DNA of 62,684 nt, the filler included, from an uncultured bacterium (GTDB taxonomy: Bacteria > DYJV01), in the NCBI GenBank assembly GCA_964543655.1. It is 3 parts of 3 records of this genome, joined end to end, with 100 filler letters (N's around TTAATTAATTAA, not from the genome) between each part and the next. Parts side by side here need not be neighbours in the genome. Positions count along the whole stretch, not along the records: positions 1 to 29,357 come from CAZIZE010000083.1; 2 more parts are not named here. One strand, given 5' to 3'. Every line of letters begins with the position of its first letter. The stretch's first letter is position 1. Below, piece after piece: positions 11,848-27,461 of the stretch. The notes under the pieces are model-generated. The model saw only the letters and a program-made list of their open reading frames with translations, was not told the DNA's origin and made no database searches. Both the position numbers and the translations under genes were made by a program.

Positions 11848-13164
11848 ATGGACACTGTGAATATTGTTGGCGCAGGATTAGCTGGAAGTGAAATAGCATA
11901 TTATTTAGCCAAACGAGGAGTTAAAATCAATCTCTATGAAATGCGTCCCACTGCTACAACACCTGCACATAAAACAGAATATTTTGCTGAGCTTGTTTGC
12001 AGCAATTCTTTTAGAAGCATTGACAATTATCATCCTGCTGGCATATTAAAGAATGAGCTTGAAAGATTAAACTCTTTTTTAATTAACACAGCAAAAAGGT
12101 TTTCTATTCCTGGTGGAAACGCATTAACCATTGATAGAGAAAAATTTTCTAAAAATATTTCAGAGACCCTCTCATCTTTTTCAAATATCAATATAATTAG
12201 AAAAGAGGTAACAGATCTTAATTTTAATGAACCAACAGTTTTAGCAACTGGTCCTCTAACATCTGAAAAACTTTCTGAAAAATTACAAAATATAACTGGA
12301 GAAGAGCATTTTTACTTTTATGATGCAATTGCTCCTATTATTGAAGCAGATTCCATTGATTTTAATTATGCTTTTTTTGGCAATAGATACTCTAATTCAG
12401 AAAATAATGACTATATTAACTGCTTCCTAACAAAAGAGGAGTATGAAACTTTTGTAACTGAGTTATTAAATGCTAAGATATACCCCTTTAAAGATTTTGA
12501 AAAAGGTAAACATTTTGAAGGATGCATGCCAATAGAAGAAATGGCAAAGCGTGGCAGGATGACTCTTGCTTATGGTCCAATGAAACCTGTTGGTTTAAAA
12601 CATCCTGTTACAGGAGAGGAATTTTTTGCAATAGTTCAGCTTAGAAGAGAAAATAGAGAGGGAACAGCTTATAATATTGTTGGTTTTCAAACAAAGATGA
12701 CCATATCAGAGCAGGAAAGAGTTTTTAGATTAATTCCAGCATTAAAAAATGCAAAATTTCTGAGATATGGCTCATTGCACAGAAATATATATATTAATGC
12801 ACCTGAAGTTTTAAATAATGACCTTTCATTACATAAAATGCCAAATATCTATATTGCTGGTCAATTATCTGGTGTAGAGGGCTACATTGAATCAATAGCT
12901 CAAGGATTAATTGTAGCAATGATAATAGATTTTAAATTAAAGAGAAAAAGTTTTCCCTACCCACCAAAAGAAACTGCAATTGGAGCATTATACCATTTTT
13001 TAAGAGAAAAAAAGAAAAAATTTGTTCCATCTAATATAAATTTTTCACTGTTTAAATATGGAGAGCAAATAAGAAAAACAAAAAATAAAAAAATAAGAAA
13101 AAAATTACTTAAAGAGCAGGCTGATAAATATTTTCAAATATGGTTAAAAAGCATCGAAGGATAA
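11848..13164 (+). CDS. trmFO: Folate/FAD-dependent tRNA U54 methyltransferase
   Basis: GAGLAGSE, AELVCSNS, FEGCMPIEE, GPMKPVGL, AGQLSGVEGY. Confidence 0.97.
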   Translation: MDTVNIVGAGLAGSEIAYYLAKRGVKINLYEMRPTATTPAHKTEYFAELVCSNSFRSIDNYHPAGILKNELERLNSFLINTAKRFSIPGGNALTIDREKFSKNISETLSSFSNINIIRKEVTDLNFNEPTVLATGPLTSEKLSEKLQNITGEEHFYFYDAIAPIIEADSIDFNYAFFGNRYSNSENNDYINCFLTKEEYETFVTELLNAKIYPFKDFEKGKHFEGCMPIEEMAKRGRMTLAYGPMKPVGLKHPVTGEEFFAIVQLRRENREGTAYNIVGFQTKMTISEQERVFRLIPALKNAKFLRYGSLHRNIYINAPEVLNNDLSLHKMPNIYIAGQLSGVEGYIESIAQGLIVAMIIDFKLKRKSFPYPPKETAIGALYHFLREKKKKFVPSNINFSLFKYGEQIRKTKNKKIRKKLLKEQADKYFQIWLKSIEG

Positions 13165-13176
13165 ACCTTCGATGCT
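13150..13176. terminator. Hairpin between convergent trmFO and porin genes
   Basis: Perfect 11-bp stem AGCATCGAAGG-ATAAA-CCTTCGATGCT, with a T-run following on the minus strand. Confidence 0.8.
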
Positions 13177-13181
13177 AAAAA

Positions 13182-15560
13182 TTAGAATTTGTATTGAAAA
13201 CCTATATTCGCAAAATAGTAAGCTCCATCAAGGTCACCATAAGCATATGGCTCATCATCTTCATAATCTTGATAACTTAATACACCATAAATTCCCCATG
13301 ATTTGTTTAAATCAATATTAACATTTAAAGTTAAATCAAGAACTGTATAATCTAAATCAGAATAATCATCAAAACCTTCATAATCAAGGGTTTTACCATC
13401 AGAGCTTATATACACAATGTAGAAACTTGAAGATGATGACTGATCTCCACTTAAGAAACCAGCTGGTGCAGAGAAATGTGGTGTATCCATACTGGCTTTG
13501 CCAATTGTATAATTGGCATTTAAAGATAGTCTAATATTATTTGCTGGAGCAAAGTCAAGACTACCCATAAAAACATGAGCTTTTTCACTATATTCCACTT
13601 TATCACATCCTGGACCCACCTGGTCCGTAAAAACATGGCCACCTCAGCCAGCATATAAGCCAACACTTATCTTTGATTCTGTGTCTGCTTTTTCAAAATT
13701 ATACCCAAAGCTAAAAGATAGCTTCTCTGAAATCATTAATGTTCCATCAAAACCAAGAGTTAATCCATCATAATTCCAATCAGTGTTACCTTCATTATTT
13801 TCGGAGTCAGTATACTTTCCAATAAAATTCATTGACAGATTTTTTGCTGCAAGCCAGTTAAGGTTCAATGAGTAGCTGTAAATCTCAGATGGAGATGCAG
13901 AGCCAGTATAAGTTCTCCTGTCATAAACAAGAGGGTAAGCAGCTTTTCCACCACCACCATATTTAAGTTGTGAAGCAGAAGTAACAGCTATGCAGCCTGC
14001 CTTTGGTTTTGCAAATGGGTCATCAATATTGGTATATTCAAATTTGAATCTACCGCTAAATTTCATAAAAGGTTTAAAATCAATACCTGCTTTAATTTTA
14101 TTTTTCTCAGTTTTCTTATGATTAGGATAAACTTCATAATTATCTCTGTCAATATTCTCATATTCATAACCTAATCTGAATTTTAATTTATTCCTCAACA
14201 TTCTATACACAGCATCTATGCCAAACTGATACTCTTTTCTATCATAGGTGGAATCACCTTCAATATCAAAAATCACAGGTTGATTAATATCATTGTAATA
14301 ATAAGCTTTTGACATATCATAATTGTAGTTAACACCTTTAAAATTTACTGGTGTTGAATAATCTGGCTGAAAATAGTAAGCATCATCTTTTTCAAGCTCT
14401 GCATGCACTGTGTCTCTATCTAACTTTAAATATCTAAATTTTGTGGTTAATGTAAGCTTTCTTTTTAATAAATGAGTTGTAAATCTTAAATTCAAAGCAT
14501 CCTGATCAAGATCAATATTGTCTCCACCATAAGAATCATTATTTGTAATGGTACTTGTTGTATATGAAGCTGCAAAAGTTGAATAATATGGTAAATCCAA
14601 TCTTAATTTAAAAGTGTCCATATGTTTGTCTGATTCTGGTGTTTTAGCAACTTCCTCAGTACCACCATAGGTCTCAGAGTTTAATCTTGGTGAAAAAACA
14701 ATATACTTATCTGGTTTTGAGCTTCTCAAACCTTCAATATTATCAAAAGTTGTTGTTAATGGTTTATTGCTTACATAGAAATCCCTGTACATATGTGAAT
14801 AGCTAAAATAAACTGGGCCACCAGTAAATGAAAAACCTGCTTTTAAATCCCTTGTTGTTTCATCTACATTTTTTCTGAGACCTCTAACATGGCAAACTGT
14901 ACATTTACCAACCATAACTGTTTTATGCTCATAACCATTTCTATTTTCAAATCTTCCAGAAAAATTTAATTTTAAAGTTTCCATACCAGGGATTGCAAAG
15001 GAAACCTTTGTGAGAAGCTCTCTTCTCTTAATATAGTAATCTTTATTAACTGCTGTTGAATCTTGCTCAAAACCATACCACTGACCACCTGGAGAGGTAA
15101 CTGTGTCATCAGCAATAAACTTGTTTATACCATAGACTTTTCCATCAGGTGAATTAACAAATGGTACCTTTCCTGTTGCTACTGCTGGAGAAAAGTTGTT
15201 TTTATCATATTGAATAAATAGAGTATCATAATCCTTTCTGTGAAAGAGGCTTGAATAATCTAAGTCAACAGATATTATTCTCATTAGATTTCCTTTAGCC
15301 TCTATACTGTTTGTATATTCACCTTCATAATTTCCATTAACATAGAGGTCTGAGTTATTGTTAAAAGTTTTAAAATTAAAGTTAACAGTTGGTGATGATT
15401 TATCTTCCTGATATTCTGCAACTCTATCAAGTTTATCATCATCACCCTGTAAAAAAGCCCCAAATTTAATTGAATTATACGATTCTTTATCTCCTGCTAT
15501 AAGTGGCATAGATAAAGCAACACAAAAAAACATTAATAAAATTATTTTAAATTTTTGCAT
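13182..15560 (-). CDS. MtrB/PioB-like outer-membrane beta-barrel, CXXCH-containing probable selenoprotein (792 aa, UGA at 13644-13646)
   Basis: The 638-aa and 145-aa ORFs are in one frame separated by a single TGA and 8 sense codons. SECIS-like hairpin follows. Signal peptide, CTVCH, terminal YKF, next to a decaheme gene. Confidence 0.85.
13604..13637 (-). promoter_or_regulatory. Bacterial SECIS-like hairpin
   Basis: CAUGUUUU-(UAC)-GGACC-AGGUG-GGUCC-AGGAUGUG; G-containing apical loop starts 22 nt after the UGA. Confidence 0.75.
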
Positions 15561-15572
15561 TATTATCCCCCC

Positions 15573-16583
15573 TTATCTTGTTAATCCTCTACCATGACTT
15601 GGCACAGATAATGATGGCAATTCTGATCCATGCACAGCTGAATGGCAGGTTGTACATTTTGTTCCCATAAAAATTTGAGTTGTCCTAACATTTTTAGTTT
15701 TTTCTAAAATTTGATTGGTTTTAGAAGTATCAGTATTTGGATTTAAATATGGCATTCCAGCTGTATTTGGCGACTGAATTGCAGTATGAAAATGTAAGTC
15801 ATGGCATTGGAGGCATAAAAATGGTTCATTCTGCTTTAATAGATTATTTGCAACTGTTCCATGTGGCTCATGGCAGATTGTACAATCTTCAACAACAGGT
15901 GAATGTTCAAAAGTAAAGGGTCCCTGATACCTTGTATGACATTTCAAACAGAGGTCATTAAGTCTTTCATCTGTTTTTAAGTTATTCAAAACACTTCCAT
16001 GATTAGCATGGCAATCAGAACAAACCATCTTACCTTCTTTAACAGGGTGATGTGTTGGGTAGTATGATTTGGCCTTAATATCTTGATGGCAAGAATAGCA
16101 CAAATCAGGCTCTTTCTTAATCAATAATGCTTGATTATGATTGTTATGAATCTTATGACACTTTACACAAGATACATCATTTAAAGCATGCTCTGAACCA
16201 TTCCAATTTTGATGCTCATCACCTGTATGACATCTCAAACAAATTGAGCTTGCTGCAACAGCATCAACTTTGTCAGGGTTGATGATTTTGGATGGCTCCT
16301 CACTTTCTACATGAATACTACCTGGCCCATGGCATGTTTCACAACCAGTTTCACCAATTGCTGTTTCTCCTGGAATAATTCTTCCATGGACATTTGATTT
16401 GAAATTTTGAACTAATTCCTCATGGCAATCAGCACATGCTTGAGAGCCTACTTTTTTGGCTCCTGGTGCTACATCCGGCATTTTAAGAGTAAAACTTCTC
16501 GTTTTCTGAAGATTTTGATTACAAGAGATTAAAGTTATTAAGAAAATTGTTGAAAAGAATAAAAATAAAATTCTTTTAATCAT
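15573..16583 (-). CDS. Decaheme c-type cytochrome, MtrA/DmsE-like, probable lipoprotein
   Basis: Ten CXXCH motifs counted; GPFTFEHSPVVEDCTICH; LISC lipobox. Confidence 0.95.
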   Translation of the reverse strand: MIKRILFLFFSTIFLITLISCNQNLQKTRSFTLKMPDVAPGAKKVGSQACADCHEELVQNFKSNVHGRIIPGETAIGETGCETCHGPGSIHVESEEPSKIINPDKVDAVAASSICLRCHTGDEHQNWNGSEHALNDVSCVKCHKIHNNHNQALLIKKEPDLCYSCHQDIKAKSYYPTHHPVKEGKMVCSDCHANHGSVLNNLKTDERLNDLCLKCHTRYQGPFTFEHSPVVEDCTICHEPHGTVANNLLKQNEPFLCLQCHDLHFHTAIQSPNTAGMPYLNPNTDTSKTNQILEKTKNVRTTQIFMGTKCTTCHSAVHGSELPSLSVPSHGRGLTR

Positions 16584-21161: not shown

Positions 21162-21599
21162 ATGATGGTTAAAAAAAATGGTTTTACTTTATTAGAACTT
21201 TTAATAAGCCTCTTTATAATTTCGATAATTACAGGTATTGGTTTTGCATATTTTTCAAGTAACAAAGCGAACCTAAAAAAAGACACAAGGATACTATATA
21301 ATTATTTACAATTTATGAGATTAAAAGCTATACAGATAAAATCAAGAACATATATTCAATTTAATATAAGTAATAAAAATTATTCATTATACTATGATAA
21401 TGGTACTATTATTAAAACAGTTAATTTATCACAGAATGTACAATTTAGTTCAGTTTCATTTGGTGCTACTAATCCTCCAAAAGCTTATTTTTATCCAGAT
21501 GGTAGTTGTTCTCCTTCTGGCTCGATTGTTCTTAAAGATAACAATAACAACACATATCAAATTACTATTAACTTAGCAGGTAATATTTCCGTTCAATAA
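21162..21599 (+). CDS. FimT/FimU-like minor pilin
   Basis: G|FTLLE prepilin cleavage motif; C-terminal FYPDG. Confidence 0.85.
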   Translation: MMVKKNGFTLLELLISLFIISIITGIGFAYFSSNKANLKKDTRILYNYLQFMRLKAIQIKSRTYIQFNISNKNYSLYYDNGTIIKTVNLSQNVQFSSVSFGATNPPKAYFYPDGSCSPSGSIVLKDNNNNTYQITINLAGNISVQ

Positions 21600-21611
21600 A
21601 GGAGTTTTTAA

Positions 21612-22598
21612 TTGATTAAAAAGCACGCATTTTCCCTAATTGAGCTTCTACTTGGTTTATTAATCCTTAGTATAGTAGTGGCTATTATTTACCCTACATT
21701 TCAAACATATAACAGGACAAGTAAAGTTCAAGAAGATGCTATGAAGCTTAATCAAAATTTAGATGTTTGCATTAATTATATAGAACATGCCATTCAAATG
21801 GCAGGTTATGGATGCAAATACTCATTAGAATTTCAAAATAAATCTGTTAATGGTTATTCTACTGTTTTTACAGCAGTTGATGGTGGTACAGGTGGCGATG
21901 ATACACTAACAGTTGTTTATGCTGACAGAGTCTTTGGACAGGTAACAAAAGATCTTGCAGGTAACTCTTCATATTCAGGAAATATAATCTATACTAACTC
22001 AACTAATGCCAATCTACTGGACAGTAATTTAAAAAAATATGTATTTATAGATAGGAATCCATTTAATCAATTTTTTGAGTTAATTGCGGATCCACAATCA
22101 ATCTCTGGCAAAGTAGCTATATTTATTGATAATAGCTCTAATCTTGAAGTATATGAAAATGATTATGTATATGCAGTAAGGGCTATAACCATTTCTTATG
22201 ATGCAACTGATCAGGAAATAGAGATAAATGATAATGTTGGTGGCAGTAATCAGCCTCTTGCATCCTGGATAGAAGCATTACAATTTCAATATGGTATAGA
22301 TGTAAATGGAGATGGTATATTTGACGATACAGATAGTGATGGAAATCCCCTTGACAATACAATTCCTGCAGGTAAAGAATTTTATGTAAAATTAGTTAGA
22401 GTCTCTGTTCTGGGAAGGAGCCCTAATCCTGACCCTACTTACAGGGATCCAAATGGTAGTTATACTGTAGGAAATAAAGTTATAACAATAGATACAGATG
22501 ATACAAATGGAATTAACTCAACTTATGATACCCATTATAGAAGAAGGTTAATTACCATAGATATAGTGCCGAGGAATTTTCAATATGAAACTTTTTAA
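21612..22598 (+). CDS. PilW-like minor pilin
   Basis: A|FSLIE, QMAGYG, LQFQYGIDVNGDG. Confidence 0.85.
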   Translation: MIKKHAFSLIELLLGLLILSIVVAIIYPTFQTYNRTSKVQEDAMKLNQNLDVCINYIEHAIQMAGYGCKYSLEFQNKSVNGYSTVFTAVDGGTGGDDTLTVVYADRVFGQVTKDLAGNSSYSGNIIYTNSTNANLLDSNLKKYVFIDRNPFNQFFELIADPQSISGKVAIFIDNSSNLEVYENDYVYAVRAITISYDATDQEIEINDNVGGSNQPLASWIEALQFQYGIDVNGDGIFDDTDSDGNPLDNTIPAGKEFYVKLVRVSVLGRSPNPDPTYRDPNGSYTVGNKVITIDTDDTNGINSTYDTHYRRRLITIDIVPRNFQYETF

Positions 22599-23070
22599 AA
22601 ACAAAAATGGATTTAGTTTTGTAGAGCTTTTAGTTGCTATAACTATTCTGGCAATTACAATACCCTCTTTTTTTACTTTTTTAAATTCTCAGATTTATAA
22701 AACAAAGTTAAATATAGATATGACCAATGCTCTACTGCTTGCTGAAAATAAACTTGAATTTTTATTACAGGAAGATTATAATAGCTCTGACCTATCTGAC
22801 ACCAATACATCTAATAATTCTAATTTGAATACCTCAATAAATTTAAATTCTATACAAAATAATGAGACAAGCTATATTTCATCCACTTTTGATCATTCAG
22901 ATACTCCTCAAATTATTAATAACACTAAATTTTATATTTTATGGAACATAGCAGAAAGCACAACTATAAAAACCACAAACAAATTTAAATTAATAGGTGT
23001 AATTATTTATTGGATATATCAGGGGAAAGGACACAAAGTTTATCTAATGAGCATTAAAAGAGAGGAATAA
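22585..23070 (+). CDS. PilV-like minor pilin
   Basis: G|FSFVE; LAENKLE. Confidence 0.82.
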   Translation: MKLFKNKNGFSFVELLVAITILAITIPSFFTFLNSQIYKTKLNIDMTNALLLAENKLEFLLQEDYNSSDLSDTNTSNNSNLNTSINLNSIQNNETSYISSTFDHSDTPQIINNTKFYILWNIAESTTIKTTNKFKLIGVIIYWIYQGKGHKVYLMSIKREE

Positions 23071-23072
23071 AT

Positions 23073-23498
23073 ATGAATAATAGAGGAATGGCAATTGTGA
23101 CAGTTCTTATGCTTATATCAGTTATCTTAATATTAATAATATCTCTATCCATAAACACTGTTACAAATTTTACAATAGTTAGAAATTCCAAAAGCACTTC
23201 CATAGATTTTTATAAAGCTGAATCAGCAAATAAAATAGAAATTTCAGATATAATTACTTTTAATGTTTCCAATATTACAAATCCAAGTGAGCCACCTATT
23301 AAAGATGCTGATGTATCAATAGATGAAAGTTCAAATTCTTTAAATTATCACTCCACAATTAAATTTGAATTTTACAAAAACACTATTAAGCCTGGAACAT
23401 CCATGAATATGTTCAGCAATTATTATTATTCAGTAAAAACCCAGGTTAATAATACAGTTATAAAAACTTTAGTTTATAAACTTGGACCTAAAATGTAA
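23073..23498 (+). CDS. PilX-like minor pilin
   Basis: RG|MAIVT lacking Glu5; FYKAES; directly before pilY1. Confidence 0.8.
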   Translation: MNNRGMAIVTVLMLISVILILIISLSINTVTNFTIVRNSKSTSIDFYKAESANKIEISDIITFNVSNITNPSEPPIKDADVSIDESSNSLNYHSTIKFEFYKNTIKPGTSMNMFSNYYYSVKTQVNNTVIKTLVYKLGPKM

Positions 23499-23510
23499 AT
23501 GGAGGTTTAA

Positions 23511-26500
23511 ATGAAAAAATTATTTTTATATACCTTTTCTATTTTAATAATTTTAGGAATAAATTCTTATACAAAAGATACTGATATTTATCTACAAAAT
23601 GTTAAACCAAATGCAATGATACTTGTGGATACATCTGGCAGTATGGGATGGGGGGTTTATGAGCATACTGTAGATTATGGTGCATTTTACGATTGGGCAA
23701 GTGACCAAGGTGATTGTGATATGATTGCAGGCAGTGGTGGAGGAAGGTGTGGCTCATACAACTATTTCTACAATTATCATTATGATAAAAATGAAATACT
23801 CCTTGTTAAAGGTAATATTGGTGTAACTATTTATAATGGTGTAACTTTTACTGGTGATCCTGGCAATCCCAATTATCTCTGGTACACAAGTAATGTTATT
23901 GAAACAGGTACATATATTGACGATAATGGTAATTTAACTGATAGTAGCGGAAGATCAATAACTGATCCTGCATATTCTGGAAGAATTACTGTAGATTCTG
24001 ATGGGTATATATTGTTAGATGGTGAAAGATTGCCACTTGATAGAAATATAAAACTTCATGACTATGTTCAATATCCTGATGGGACAATTATAGACAAGGG
24101 ATTTGCAGGAATGCTTAATGCTCCTGGCTGGTATTTTAGCGGTTTTGAATATATTGGTAATAGTGCTGCAGAGCATAATGTAGCAGAAGATGGAGATACT
24201 TATATATACTTTTTTATTCCTGGTAACTGGATGAATATGCAGGAGATGTATAATCTCTACACAGCATATACAACAAATGAAGCATACAGAACATGGAAAA
24301 CAAGAACATTTTCAACAACTACCACACCATATACTCCTGTTTCCGTTGATATTCATTCACCAAATTATCCAAGTAACTATCCTAATAACAGAGATGAAAC
24401 CTATACTATTACCCAGATAGATGCTTCAAAAATTAAACTTCATTTCTCAGCTTTCAATCTTGAATATAACTGGTATTGTGGCTGGGATTATGTAAAAATT
24501 TATAAAGATAGTATAACAAACTCTAATTTATTAGATACTTTTTGTGGGAACTTAGGTAGTTTTACTACTTCATCATATACCCTTGGTAGCACAAAAAAAT
24601 TAATAATAGTTTTTCATTCAGATTATTCTGTAACTTATTCAGGGTTTAAAATAGACAGATATGAATACCTACCTGAAGATGTTGCAACTTCTGGCTATAA
24701 AATGCAAACAAGGCTTGAAGTTGTTATAGATGCAATGGTAGATGTAATTCAAGAAACCAAAGGTAAAGTTAATTGGGCTCTTGCATCTTTTAGTGTTTCA
24801 CCAACTGGTGATGGAGCAAAAATATGGCAACCTTTTGATCCATCTCTTTCAGATGATCAGCTTGAGCAAAATATTACAAATTATCTTAATTCATTTACAG
24901 CAGATGGTGGTACCCCTCTTGGTGAAGCATTGCAAGATGTATGGAATCATTATCATAGTAAAGCATCCATTTTACCAACATGTGCCAAAAACCACACTAT
25001 AGTTCTCTCAGATGGTTATCCTTCTACTGATGAAGATTGGTCACGAATAAGTGGAGTTACTTTTAGTGATTGGGATAATGATGGATGGACAGAGGATCCT
25101 TACCAGTATAGATCACCTCCTGATGATTATTTTGATGATGTTTCTCACTGGATGTATACTCATTCTATTGTAGATGGCTCATCAGTATCTGATCCTGAAA
25201 ATAGCCACGTAAATGTGAGGAATCATATGTTAAGTTTTACAATGTCTTCGCCACTTATGGAAGATGCTGCTGACGAAGGTGGCGGAGTGTTTGTATCTGC
25301 ATTTAACAAACAGCAGCTTGTAAATGCCTTTTATTCACTTGGAATTATAATTGCGAATAGTGTTTCTTATACTGCACCGGTAGTTTCTGTTGATACAACT
25401 AATAAAACTCAAAGTGGTCAATACATCTATATGACATTTTTTAAACCAAAATCACCAAACTGGCTTGGTAATTTAAAAAAATATAAAGTTAATTATCAGG
25501 TGAAAAGTGGTTGTACAGGTAGAACAGACAAAGAATGGGTGGTAGTTGATAAAAATGATTTAGACGCAACAGATTGTGATGGAACTTTCAAATCTACCTC
25601 TGTTTCATATTGGACAGACCAGGAAGATGGTGGAGAAGTAGAAGCAGGAGGTGCTGGTAAAGTTTTACTTGATAAATTATCTGATGCTTCTCTTTCTGAT
25701 CCATATAACACAACATATAGAAAAATATATTTTATTGATTCATCTACTAATACTTTCAAAAGATTTATACCGTCCAATTTAGCCACTGGTGTACTTGATG
25801 AAGCTGATACAAGTGAAAAGTATAAAATTATTAACTATGTTTATGGTTATACTTATGCTGAAGATGGCTCCACCAATCATTATCCAGTGGCCAAAAGAAA
25901 CTGGGTACTTGGAAGTATGATTCATTCTGAACCTGTTGTTATAAATTATGAAGCTGACAATAAAACTTACATAGTTGCTGGAGGAAATGATGGGCAATTA
26001 CATGTTTTTGATGATTCAGATGGTGAGGAAATCTTTTCATTAATTTTTGATTGTTTTTTAAATAAATTAAAATATATGGATCCTAACTCTACTGAGAGTA
26101 GACCACTATTTTTTGATGATGGTTCTCTATCATTCTATTTTACTTTTGATTCAGAGGGAAGAATTGTTCCTGAATTATTAATTGTGGGTCTTAGACGTGG
26201 TGGAAAAAGTTATTATGCTTTTAATATTGAAGATTCAAATCCAGAAAATTGGACATTAAAGTGGAAAATTACAGGTGGAGGAAGTGGAGACTTTGCAGAA
26301 TTAGGTTATACCTGGTCAGATATGGTTATTAGCAAAATGAGGATTGGTACAACTGATAAAGTAGTAGGTATTTTCAGTGGAGGATATGACCCTATAGAAG
26401 ACAACAGTACATCACCTCAAACAAGTGTCACAATGGGTAGAGGTATTTTTATTATAGATCTTGAAACTGGTACCAAATTATACTCATATACATATAGTGA

Positions 26501-27461
26501 TGATTCAAATATGAAATATTGTATACCAGCAACTCCCACTGTTATTACTGATGTAAATGGCTATCTTGATAAAATATATGTTACTGATATTGGTGGCCAA
26601 GTTTGGCGATTATACTATGATAGCTCAACAGACACTTTAAAAGCACATATTATCTTTAAATCAAATCCAGGTTCAGACTCCACAAGTGGTAACACAGGTG
26701 GCACATTAACATCAAGTGATTCTAATAGAAAATTTTTCTATTCTCCTACAGTTACTGTTCTTGGTAAATGTGCAACTAACTATAGTCAAGGGTCAATAGG
26801 CTTTCTTACTAAAGCCCTCTATTTTGGTTCTGGAGACAGAGAGCATCCACTTGATACAACAGTAAAAAATAGAATTTATATGGTTATTGATGATATTCAA
26901 GATAATGATACAACTACAACTTATACAGAACAAAATTTACTTAATGTTACCAATGATGAACTTGATGTTGATTCAGGTGCTTCAGAAACAGAAAAAGAAG
27001 CAATTTTAAATAAATTACAAACAAGTAAAGGCTGGTTTATAAAATTATCAGAAATTAGTGATACTCAAAATCATTTAGGAGAAAAAATTTTAAGCATGCC
27101 TATACTATTTAATGAGCGTGCATATTTTACTTCATTTACTCCAGAGTCAACTGATCCATGTAATCCACATGGAATCAGTAGAGTTTATGCATTAAAATAT
27201 TGCTATGGATTAGCTGGAATAAATTATAACACTTCAAACGATAGTGGAGATACAGAAAAATATGATAAAACAGATAGATATAGAAATATAGGTGTTTCAC
27301 TACCATCAGGAGTTAAAATTGCCATTAGAGAAGGTCATGTTTGGGCTCTTATAAGTGCTGGTGGTGGTATTCCAGGTGCAGGGGAACTCGGGTCACCTAA
27401 TATTCCAGAAGAAAACCTGAATATTCATATAGAGAGATGGGAAAATTTTCAAAATTGGTAA
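23511..27461 (+). CDS. pilY1: PilY1/PilC adhesin: vWA with inserted CUB domain plus beta-propeller
   Basis: DTSGS MIDAS, GGTPLGEAL, LSDG, GGNDGQLHVF, YFGSGD; CUB motifs at about 24340-24668. Confidence 0.9.
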   Translation: MKKLFLYTFSILIILGINSYTKDTDIYLQNVKPNAMILVDTSGSMGWGVYEHTVDYGAFYDWASDQGDCDMIAGSGGGRCGSYNYFYNYHYDKNEILLVKGNIGVTIYNGVTFTGDPGNPNYLWYTSNVIETGTYIDDNGNLTDSSGRSITDPAYSGRITVDSDGYILLDGERLPLDRNIKLHDYVQYPDGTIIDKGFAGMLNAPGWYFSGFEYIGNSAAEHNVAEDGDTYIYFFIPGNWMNMQEMYNLYTAYTTNEAYRTWKTRTFSTTTTPYTPVSVDIHSPNYPSNYPNNRDETYTITQIDASKIKLHFSAFNLEYNWYCGWDYVKIYKDSITNSNLLDTFCGNLGSFTTSSYTLGSTKKLIIVFHSDYSVTYSGFKIDRYEYLPEDVATSGYKMQTRLEVVIDAMVDVIQETKGKVNWALASFSVSPTGDGAKIWQPFDPSLSDDQLEQNITNYLNSFTADGGTPLGEALQDVWNHYHSKASILPTCAKNHTIVLSDGYPSTDEDWSRISGVTFSDWDNDGWTEDPYQYRSPPDDYFDDVSHWMYTHSIVDGSSVSDPENSHVNVRNHMLSFTMSSPLMEDAADEGGGVFVSAFNKQQLVNAFYSLGIIIANSVSYTAPVVSVDTTNKTQSGQYIYMTFFKPKSPNWLGNLKKYKVNYQVKSGCTGRTDKEWVVVDKNDLDATDCDGTFKSTSVSYWTDQEDGGEVEAGGAGKVLLDKLSDASLSDPYNTTYRKIYFIDSSTNTFKRFIPSNLATGVLDEADTSEKYKIINYVYGYTYAEDGSTNHYPVAKRNWVLGSMIHSEPVVINYEADNKTYIVAGGNDGQLHVFDDSDGEEIFSLIFDCFLNKLKYMDPNSTESRPLFFDDGSLSFYFTFDSEGRIVPELLIVGLRRGGKSYYAFNIEDSNPENWTLKWKITGGGSGDFAELGYTWSDMVISKMRIGTTDKVVGIFSGGYDPIEDNSTSPQTSVTMGRGIFIIDLETGTKLYSYTYSDDSNMKYCIPATPTVITDVNGYLDKIYVTDIGGQVWRLYYDSSTDTLKAHIIFKSNPGSDSTSGNTGGTLTSSDSNRKFFYSPTVTVLGKCATNYSQGSIGFLTKALYFGSGDREHPLDTTVKNRIYMVIDDIQDNDTTTTYTEQNLLNVTNDELDVDSGASETEKEAILNKLQTSKGWFIKLSEISDTQNHLGEKILSMPILFNERAYFTSFTPESTDPCNPHGISRVYALKYCYGLAGINYNTSNDSGDTEKYDKTDRYRNIGVSLPSGVKIAIREGHVWALISAGGGIPGAGELGSPNIPEENLNIHIERWENFQNW

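Follow-up and report, generated by a model that had tools for sequence, protein, structure and literature searches.

A predicted selenocysteine-containing outer-membrane barrel encoded beside a decahaem cytochrome gene in an uncultured bacterium

RESULTS

An in-frame UGA codon in a porin-cytochrome gene pair

The window analysed here is a stretch of 62,684 nucleotides (29.3% G+C) from an uncultured bacterium (GenBank assembly GCA_964543655.1), composed of three parts of three records of this genome joined by filler letters. On its minus strand lies a two-gene operon that very probably encodes a porin-cytochrome electron conduit, whose outer-membrane component is a 792-amino-acid MtrB-like barrel with UGA codon 639 read as selenocysteine (Sec) by means of a selenocysteine insertion sequence (SECIS). 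A Sec-containing outer-membrane barrel of this length had been put forward in the original prediction, which was made from the sequence of the window alone, and it is supported by the conservation of the TGA, by homologues with Cys, by a SECIS hairpin that covaries, and by the purifying selection seen past the UGA.

Two open reading frames (ORFs), 15560..13644 (638 amino acids) and 13619..13182, share one frame on the minus strand. The claim of a single frame across the UGA, which had been made with no strand given, was borne out: the TGA at 13646..13644 is the sole interruption of 15560..13182 and the only in-frame TGA of the gene. Past this codon the frame stays open for 153 codons, up to the TAA at 13184..13182, and the read-through product (...VGLYAG-U-GGHVFTDQVGPGCDK...NIGFQYKF-stop) has 792 residues. 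Two further predictions agree with the translated frame, namely that the C-terminal Phe is present only if the UGA is read through and that a Cys (Cys652) lies 13 residues past the UGA. The window contains 45 ORFs of at least 150 amino acids, 7 of which end in TGA; the number of open codons that follow is 0 to 14 for the other six and 153 for the barrel gene. When 153 trinucleotides were drawn at random from the window, the draw was stop-free in 1 of 20,000 cases.

Searched against NCBIfam, the read-through protein matched one model only, NF041027 ("GSU2204 family CXXCH-containing (seleno)protein," model GSU2204_Se_pt_1), with 389.6 bits against a cutoff of 350, and the family named in the original prediction is the correct one. 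Residues 12 to 638 align with positions 4 to 580 of this 580-position hidden Markov model (HMM), the end of which falls one residue before the UGA. The single CxxCH motif (C220, C223, and H224) is invariant in 11/11 aligned full-length homologues, and exactly one CxxCH is present per barrel gene in 8/8 loci. In addition to the above-cutoff score and the single CxxCH, the gene shares with the family a Sec/Cys site just past the end of the "part 1" model, with a conserved C-terminal region beyond it, and a GSU2203-family neighbour. A Pfam scan of the barrel returned no family at E ≤ 0.01.

The barrel gene is a further member, from an uncultured lineage, of a catalogued but uncharacterised predicted selenoprotein family. 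At the family level the idea is not new, as the NCBI model name and Table 1 of a 2026 review (PMC13188914) already list it; the row for the GSU2204 family in that table gives one Sec and no motif, and it cites a 2008 ocean-metagenome paper (reference 61 of the review). GSU2203 (OmcK) and GSU2204 also appear in a table of a 2013 paper among the genes that iron oxides induce in Geobacter. What is new here is a census of Sec and Cys codons at the DNA level, a SECIS supported by covariation, a predicted barrel closure that needs read-through, and the predicted placement of Sec and a haem motif on the same face.

The UGA codon alternates with cysteine codons

Five loci from species-representative genomes (L001 to L005) encode products with 80, 73, 54, 52, and 26% identity to the window product. 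All five have TGA at the aligned codon, after which the frame goes on to a C-terminal ...Y[KT]F. In the phylum of G001, represented by five genomes in the collection, the gene is present in 5/5, and each of the six matches (6/6) has one TGA; in the phylum of G005, 15 of 18 genomes yielded a match, and 16 of the 17 matches that span the site have one TGA. Taken together, these two small phyla show TGA in 22/23 site-spanning matches, with the Sec form found in 5/5 and 14/18 genomes, respectively. The exception (L032, from the G005 phylum) lacks a TGA, has the Cys codon TGT in its place, and reads ...RA-C-AGSTF. Three metagenome loci with 24 to 26% identity (L010 to L012) have TGC, and the non-TGA loci verified in DNA carry a Cys codon in 4/4 cases. 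A further locus, L013, covers residues 19 to 474 only, stops short of the site, and was excluded. The alignment of homologues that had been proposed as a check on Cys or UGA at this position found TGA in 22 distinct sequences and a Cys codon in four others. In protein libraries, three homologues (P0014, P0015, and P0016) show Cys at the site; P0014 is a Desulfuromonas thiophila protein that carries the NCBI name of the GSU2204 family.

Three contigs from sequencing runs also cover the gene or parts of it. X1, possibly the source of the window DNA, spans the gene from end to end and differs from it only at 14817; X2 (392 nt) includes the TGA and ends 20 letters past it; and X3 (93 nt, ∼92% identity) bridges the TGA, with its only listed difference at 13624. 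TGG or TGT in reads had been named as a sign against Sec, and neither occurs in these contigs, which is weak, contig-level evidence.

The region past the UGA is under purifying selection

Over the 153 codons past the UGA, the ratio of nonsynonymous to synonymous substitution rates (dN/dS) is 0.059 in comparison with L001 and 0.114 in comparison with L002. As judged from these sequences, the region past the UGA is translated and under purifying selection.

Gene callers cut the gene at the TGA, and seven library proteins (P0004 to P0010) end at ...LYAG. The protein library also holds about 40 clusters of C-terminal fragments, roughly 65 to 190 amino acids long, and an in-frame GTG is present at codon 648. 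These observations favour a split or broken gene, in which the TGA is a true stop and either the 638-amino-acid product is made alone, from a pseudogene, or the C-terminal 145 amino acids are made separately from the GTG at 13619 to give a two-chain barrel. The pattern of conservation makes such an arrangement very improbable. Pseudogene decay would not leave the stop at one and the same codon in 22 distinct sequences, the most distant of which has 26% identity. Conservation extends over the eight codons that separate the UGA from GTG 648, the first start-like codon; changes in them are mostly synonymous, and the window, L001, and L002 differ there at third positions only. The start of the downstream ORF differs in place from locus to locus, and the 20 nt ahead of GTG 648 contain no recognisable purine-rich ribosome-binding site. 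Moreover, the Cys forms are single chains, and the structural model suggests that a product of 21 strands, lacking the C-terminal aromatic residue, could not close the barrel.

A covarying hairpin follows the UGA

The hairpin described in the original prediction is present as stated, with GGACC at 13626..13622, the loop AGGUG at 13621..13617, and GGUCC at 13616..13612, forming a 5-bp stem with a loop that starts 22 nt past the UGA. According to the legend of Fig. 2 in PMC13188914, the bacterial SECIS (bSECIS) model has a loop of 3 to 9 nt, a stem of 4 to 16 bp, a G in the first two loop positions, a distance of 16 to 37 nt from the UGA, and a minimum free energy of ≤ −7.5 kcal/mol. The window element agrees with this model in its 5-nt loop, 5-bp stem, 22-nt spacing, and energy of −8.4 kcal/mol, and the earlier statement that its spacing fits bacterial SECIS elements holds for the range in that legend. 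The G-U-rich lower stem that had also been described is seen in the single-sequence fold; none of its columns varies among relatives, which leaves no covariation to assess there.

Covariation was assessed in 21 distinct ungapped 54-nt stretches starting from the TGA, with copies identical over the 54 nt merged. L035, the product of which ends in Leu, was left out of this alignment, and its TGA and flanks were read separately. In the helix formed by columns 19 to 26 with 30 to 37, 87.5% of cells pair, compared with 71.9 ± 1.7% in shuffles (0/500 reach the observed value). Changes on both sides occur in 6/8 hairpin pairs (0/500 shuffles), the covariation score is 0.350 versus 0.120 (0/500), and pairing in a shifted helix register is at most 47%. 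RNAalifold independently chooses 22 to 26 with 30 to 34 and a 3-nt loop. Positions G27 and G28 are invariant, and pair 23:33 appears as G-C (9 sequences), C-G (6), or A-U (5). Across the 21 sequences, the loop contains GG(U/C) and the stem begins 15 to 17 nt past the UGA; among relatives, the stem reaches up to 8 bp with a GGU loop. The four Cys forms, read in the same register, pair in 12/32 cells, and GAU or GAG replaces GGU. In the related-strain contig X3, the 13624 T>C difference corresponds to A23>G in the hairpin, by which an A-U pair becomes G-U and pairing is kept while Asp changes to Gly. These sequence comparisons support the view that the hairpin acts as a bacterial SECIS element and that it is specific to the TGA forms.

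A second candidate structure was considered and set aside. It is a terminator-like hairpin that encloses the UGA (13650..13636, minus strand; UGGCUG-AGG-UGGCCA, then UGUUUUU) that is not kept in L001 and probably arose by chance.

Related genomes encode the selenocysteine machinery

The Sec machinery was examined in five related genomes (G001 to G005) and in the window. Above-cutoff matches were found for selB in 5/5 of these genomes, for selD in 5/5, and for selA in 4/5, and a tRNA-Sec over the gathering score was found in 4/5. Each selD contains one in-frame TGA, by which SelD itself is a predicted selenoprotein in G001 to G005; these organisms would therefore decode UGA as Sec elsewhere.

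The barrel resembles MtrB and is paired with a decahaem cytochrome

An AlphaFold2 model of the barrel was built on an 11-sequence alignment (mean predicted local distance difference test [pLDDT] of 67.5; predicted template modelling [pTM] score of 0.62). It has 26 strands, with strand pLDDT mostly above 85 and loop pLDDT below 50. On one face of the model are 12 turns, all of 2 to 4 residues, and every long loop (up to 65 residues) is on the other face. In outer-membrane proteins, the long-loop face is by convention the extracellular one, and the corresponding face of this barrel is probably extracellular. The model puts the CxxCH at 220 to 224 in the loop that joins strands 7 and 8 and Sec639 in the one that joins strands 21 and 22. 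With strands of 23 to 29 residues, the two hairpins are unusually long in the model, and the long-loop face carries both. Strands 22 to 26 come from residues 640 to 792, and a stop at 638 leaves 21 strands and no C-terminal Phe. Barrel closure, as far as the model can be followed, would need read-through. The top Foldseek match in the PDB is 6r2q_B (MtrB), with E = 2.4e-25 and a TM score of 0.74 by target, the next match having E = 4.6e-10. UniRef names the Desulfuromonas thiophila homologue MtrB/PioB.

The gene upstream of the barrel gene, at 16583..15573, matches NF041028 (GSU2203-family decahaem cytochrome) with 439.5 bits against a cutoff of 325 and the DmsE/MtrA family model TIGR03508 with 264.1 bits against 192.2. 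Only 12 nt separate the cytochrome stop from the barrel gene. An ORF of 332 to 350 amino acids with exactly 10 CxxCH motifs lies directly upstream of the barrel in 8/8 loci, in Sec and Cys forms alike. The genes on either side, a convergent trmFO and a divergent PAS histidine kinase gene, have no relation to the pair, and no MtrC-type gene is adjacent to the pair in the window.

Possible partners of the selenocysteine

The possibility of a Sec-Cys redox pair, which the original prediction had raised on the basis of the Cys 13 residues past the UGA, fared less well. Cys occupies position +13 in 16 of the 22 distinct Sec forms, and the other six have His (three), Lys (two), or Asp (one), which puts Cys or His there in 19/22; in 4/4 Cys forms the position is Tyr. 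A His at +3 (U-G-G-H) is found in 19/22 Sec forms and is more constant than the +13 Cys. The model places residue 652 far along strand 22 and at a distance from the tip, which is itself poorly predicted. A conserved selenenylsulfide partner is not supported, because +13 is variable and residue 652 is away from the tip.

A different partner can be imagined, namely that Sec639 and the barrel's own haem (CxxCH 220 to 224) would sit together at the outer mouth, with the selenol as an axial or second-sphere haem ligand or as a contact for an extracellular substrate. We regard this arrangement as speculative and rather unlikely. The facts that allow it are that the CxxCH is invariant, that the site is occupied by Sec or Cys only, that the model has both at the tips of unusually long hairpins which share a face, and that +3 is His and +13 is Cys or His in 19/22 Sec forms each. 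If true, it would place cell-surface selenium chemistry in an outer-membrane β-barrel and replace the separate MtrC surface cytochrome of classical systems, and metal, sulfur, or selenium species would be the candidate extracellular substrates touched by Sec.

Observations that weigh against a selenocysteine-containing conduit

Several results count against the reading proposed here. At the site itself, some database proteins have W (P0002 and P0003) or G (P0017 and P0021). These four were compared as protein sequences and come from gene calls found solely in ENA on contigs of 1.6 to 6.2 kb (P0002, 2.5 kb; P0003, 1.6 kb). P0002 and P0003 are 80 to 83% identical to the L003 product, and P0017 is 60% identical to the products of L021 and L022. 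Since the DNA of L003, L021, and L022 has TGA at the site, the likeliest explanation of the W and G residues is TGA read under code 4 or 25. Trp in homologues had been named in advance as a sign against Sec; W is indeed seen in P0002 and P0003, and most likely stands for TGA under code 4, given the TGA in L003 DNA. Such entries are a trap for Sec/Cys tests built on protein databases.

The same residues are what would be expected if TGA were read as a standard amino acid (Trp under code 4 or Gly under code 25) with no selenium involved. That reading is exceedingly improbable. TGA ends six other window ORFs of at least 150 amino acids, after which the frame shuts again within 0 to 14 codons, and a general reassignment of TGA is excluded because TGA serves as a normal stop in the window. 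The selD, selB, and selA genes of the relatives are open except for the single selD TGA, the barrel gene has exactly one TGA, and the W- and G-containing proteins come from the short-contig, ENA-only calls described above.

With respect to the machinery, selA was not found in G003, and the best tRNA-Sec match in G005 scores 45.1 bits against a gathering score of 47; both are incomplete metagenome-assembled genomes. The window contains no tRNA gene by ARAGORN and no Rfam match at the gathering threshold, and a tblastn search of the window with G001 selB gave no match. Full-text literature searches on GSU2204 and NF041027 found no experiment that addressed Sec insertion, haem binding, or the function of the family.

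Downstream structure can stimulate stop-codon read-through in general. A programmed read-through without selenium can accordingly be envisaged, in which the hairpin promotes near-cognate decoding of the UGA (as Trp, Cys, or Arg) and a mix of 638- and 792-amino-acid proteins results; the literature searches, which found no demonstrated Sec insertion for any family member, are in its favour as well. We consider it quite improbable. In DNA-verified loci the site alternates with Cys alone (4/4 non-TGA), a pattern characteristic of Sec sites; the loop sequence and the spacing of the hairpin match the SelB-type bSECIS model, and the relatives carry selB and selD in 5/5 genomes and selA and an over-threshold tRNA-Sec in 4/5 each.

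As for the hairpin, one covariation measure, the number of further pair types, is not significant (49/500 shuffles). The shuffle control ignores relatedness, the tested structure was derived from the same sequences, and the hairpin overlaps conserved codons (QVG). The 66-nt fold past the UGA is no stabler than shuffles (z = −0.35; 68/200 fold as well). Because this energy is unremarkable, support for the hairpin comes from covariation, not from energy. No Rfam family was found at 13540..13700, even at E ≤ 10.

Finally, the loops of the model, including 217 to 225 and 634 to 650, have pLDDT below 50, and loop placement rests on strand parity only. There is no sequence-level link to MtrB: the barrel has no Pfam match, and a PDB family-profile search gave a best E value of 0.4, with chance matches. 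Pfam MtrB_PioB and TIGR03509, which we take to be the HMMs of the MtrB/PioB family, gave no match to the barrel sequence (Pfam at E ≤ 0.01; NCBIfam).

Features and gene neighbourhood

The coordinates of the features are collected in Table 1.

TABLE 1 Features of the barrel gene and its surroundings in the window
Feature	Coordinates	Strand	Basis
Whole barrel gene, 792 codons	15560..13182	minus	ATG 15560..15558, TAA 13184..13182; ORF calls and NF041027 match
Predicted signal peptide, ∼residues 1-23 (...PLIAG)	15560..15492	minus	Sequence; helix 2-21 in model; putative cleavage site
CTVCH, single CxxCH haem-binding motif, C220/C223/H224	14903..14889	minus	11/11 aligned homologues; loop between model strands 7 and 8
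UGA codon 639, read as selenocysteine (predicted)	13646..13644	minus	Aligned TGA in relatives; TGC/TGT in L010-L012, L032
SECIS-like hairpin, positions 19-37 after U of UGA	13628..13610	minus	Covariation and published bSECIS criteria
Codons 640-792: predicted strands 22-26 and C-terminal ...FQYKF	13643..13185	minus	dN/dS; model strands E645-673 to E779-791
Cys652, 13 residues past Sec	13607..13605	minus	Cys in 16/22 distinct Sec forms
GGGGGG Shine-Dalgarno-like run, 6 nt ahead of barrel ATG, directly past cytochrome stop	15572..15567	minus	Sequence; function inferred
GSU2203-family decahaem c-type cytochrome, 336 amino acids, 10 CxxCH, lipobox-like LISC	16583..15573	minus	NF041028 match
11-bp inverted repeat, loop ATAAA, spanning trmFO stop between convergent trmFO and barrel genes	13150..13176	.	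Sequence

The decahaem partner has a lipobox-like N terminus in 9/9 sequences (the window, L001 to L005, and L010 to L012). It reads ...LITLISC in the window, and the lipobox-like ends in the other loci are LFSC, LFAC, ISSC, LISC, LAGC, VCAC, LCAC, and LVSC. From these sequences, the partner is probably a lipoprotein; MtrA, in contrast, is soluble. In G004, a 1,216-amino-acid ORF with seven CxxCH motifs (L004:1100-4750, plus strand) lies just upstream of the decahaem-barrel pair and, from its sequence, may encode an additional surface cytochrome.

The gene pair is near universal in both small uncultured phyla (5/5 and 15/18 genomes), in which all genomes are 1.2 to 2.5 Mb, and two or three copies are present in G003, G005, and G013. 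The inverted repeat at 13150..13176 may be a terminator shared by trmFO and the barrel gene; a terminator scan did not call it. Elsewhere in the window (21162..27461, plus strand), a pseudopilin-like gene with a ComGD/GspH-type N terminus is followed by ORFs of 328 and 1,316 amino acids, neither of which has an NCBIfam match at E ≤ 1e-5.

Proposed mechanism and its implications

In the mechanism that we propose, the operon at 16583..13182 (minus strand) would supply both parts of a trans-outer-membrane electron conduit, the decahaem GSU2203-family cytochrome and the 26-strand GSU2204-family barrel. The barrel mRNA carries a UGA at codon 639, and the hairpin downstream would work as a bacterial SECIS, at which SelB-GTP-Sec-tRNA(Sec) would insert selenocysteine in place of termination. 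Only the read-through product would close the barrel, the 153 residues past Sec providing strands 22 to 26 and the C-terminal aromatic signal. Sec639 would then be located at the tip of the strand 21/22 hairpin and the presumed covalent haem site, CxxCH, at the tip of the strand 7/8 hairpin, both at the extracellular face. Four points of this scheme are inferred: that the organism does insert Sec, that haem is attached to the barrel, that the loops are oriented as the model suggests, and that Sec has a redox or ligand role where the conduit opens to the outside.

In terms of annotation, the pair of ORFs should be joined as a single selenoprotein gene, a correction that extends to dozens of split, W-containing, or G-containing entries of the family. 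The result is a computationally predicted selenoprotein family of the outer membrane that is tied to a decahaem electron conduit, and Sec together with a haem motif inside an MtrB-like barrel would amount to extracellular electron transfer in a compact form.

Comparison with known systems

By structure, the closest known protein is MtrB of the Shewanella baltica MtrCAB complex (PDB 6R2Q chain B), which is likewise a 26-strand barrel and by far the best match to the model. As in the MtrB/PioB/MtoB porins, the window barrel gene adjoins a DmsE/MtrA-type decahaem cytochrome gene. Identity to MtrB is 13%, however, and the window barrel differs in having its own CxxCH and a predicted Sec. Unlike in MtrCAB, no MtrC-type surface cytochrome gene adjoins it, and its partner has a lipobox-like N terminus.

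Cyc2, known from iron oxidisers, is a cytochrome-porin fusion in which a haem domain is followed by a smaller barrel. Cyc2 resembles the window protein, going by the description consulted (10.1101/228056 / PMC8406198), in being an outer-membrane barrel with one c-type haem motif; unlike in Cyc2, the CxxCH of the window protein is placed in the strand 7/8 loop of a predicted 26-strand barrel, accompanied by a separate decahaem partner and a predicted Sec. The multihaem cytochrome ExtKL (NF040886), as listed in Table 1 of PMC13188914, likewise belongs to a porin-cytochrome gene cluster and is predicted to be a selenoprotein, again lacking a recognised Sec motif. Compared by its description only, ExtKL differs in being a soluble or lipoprotein cytochrome with no barrel.

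The hairpin is like a bacterial SECIS of the E. coli fdhF type in being a stem-loop inside the coding region just past a UGA. The elements of this family also resemble the bacterial SECIS model as given in the figure legend of PMC13188914, with a stem of 5 to 8 bp, a loop of 3 to 5 nt starting with GG or GU, and 22 to 23 nt from UGA to loop. The window element differs in having no sequence likeness to any Rfam family, and the folds of the L003 and L004 hairpins have a bulged U, which is lacking in the window copy.

With the NF041027 family, the window gene shares an above-cutoff HMM score, the single invariant CxxCH, and a decahaem GSU2203-family neighbour, and the Sec/Cys site is common to the window protein and the named Desulfuromonas thiophila Cys form (WP_092076389.1). 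Desulfuromonas-type Cys forms have only 25 to 28% identity to the window product. The window copy differs in coming from an uncultured lineage of 29% G+C and in having a predicted Sec rather than Cys, and there is no difference in kind.

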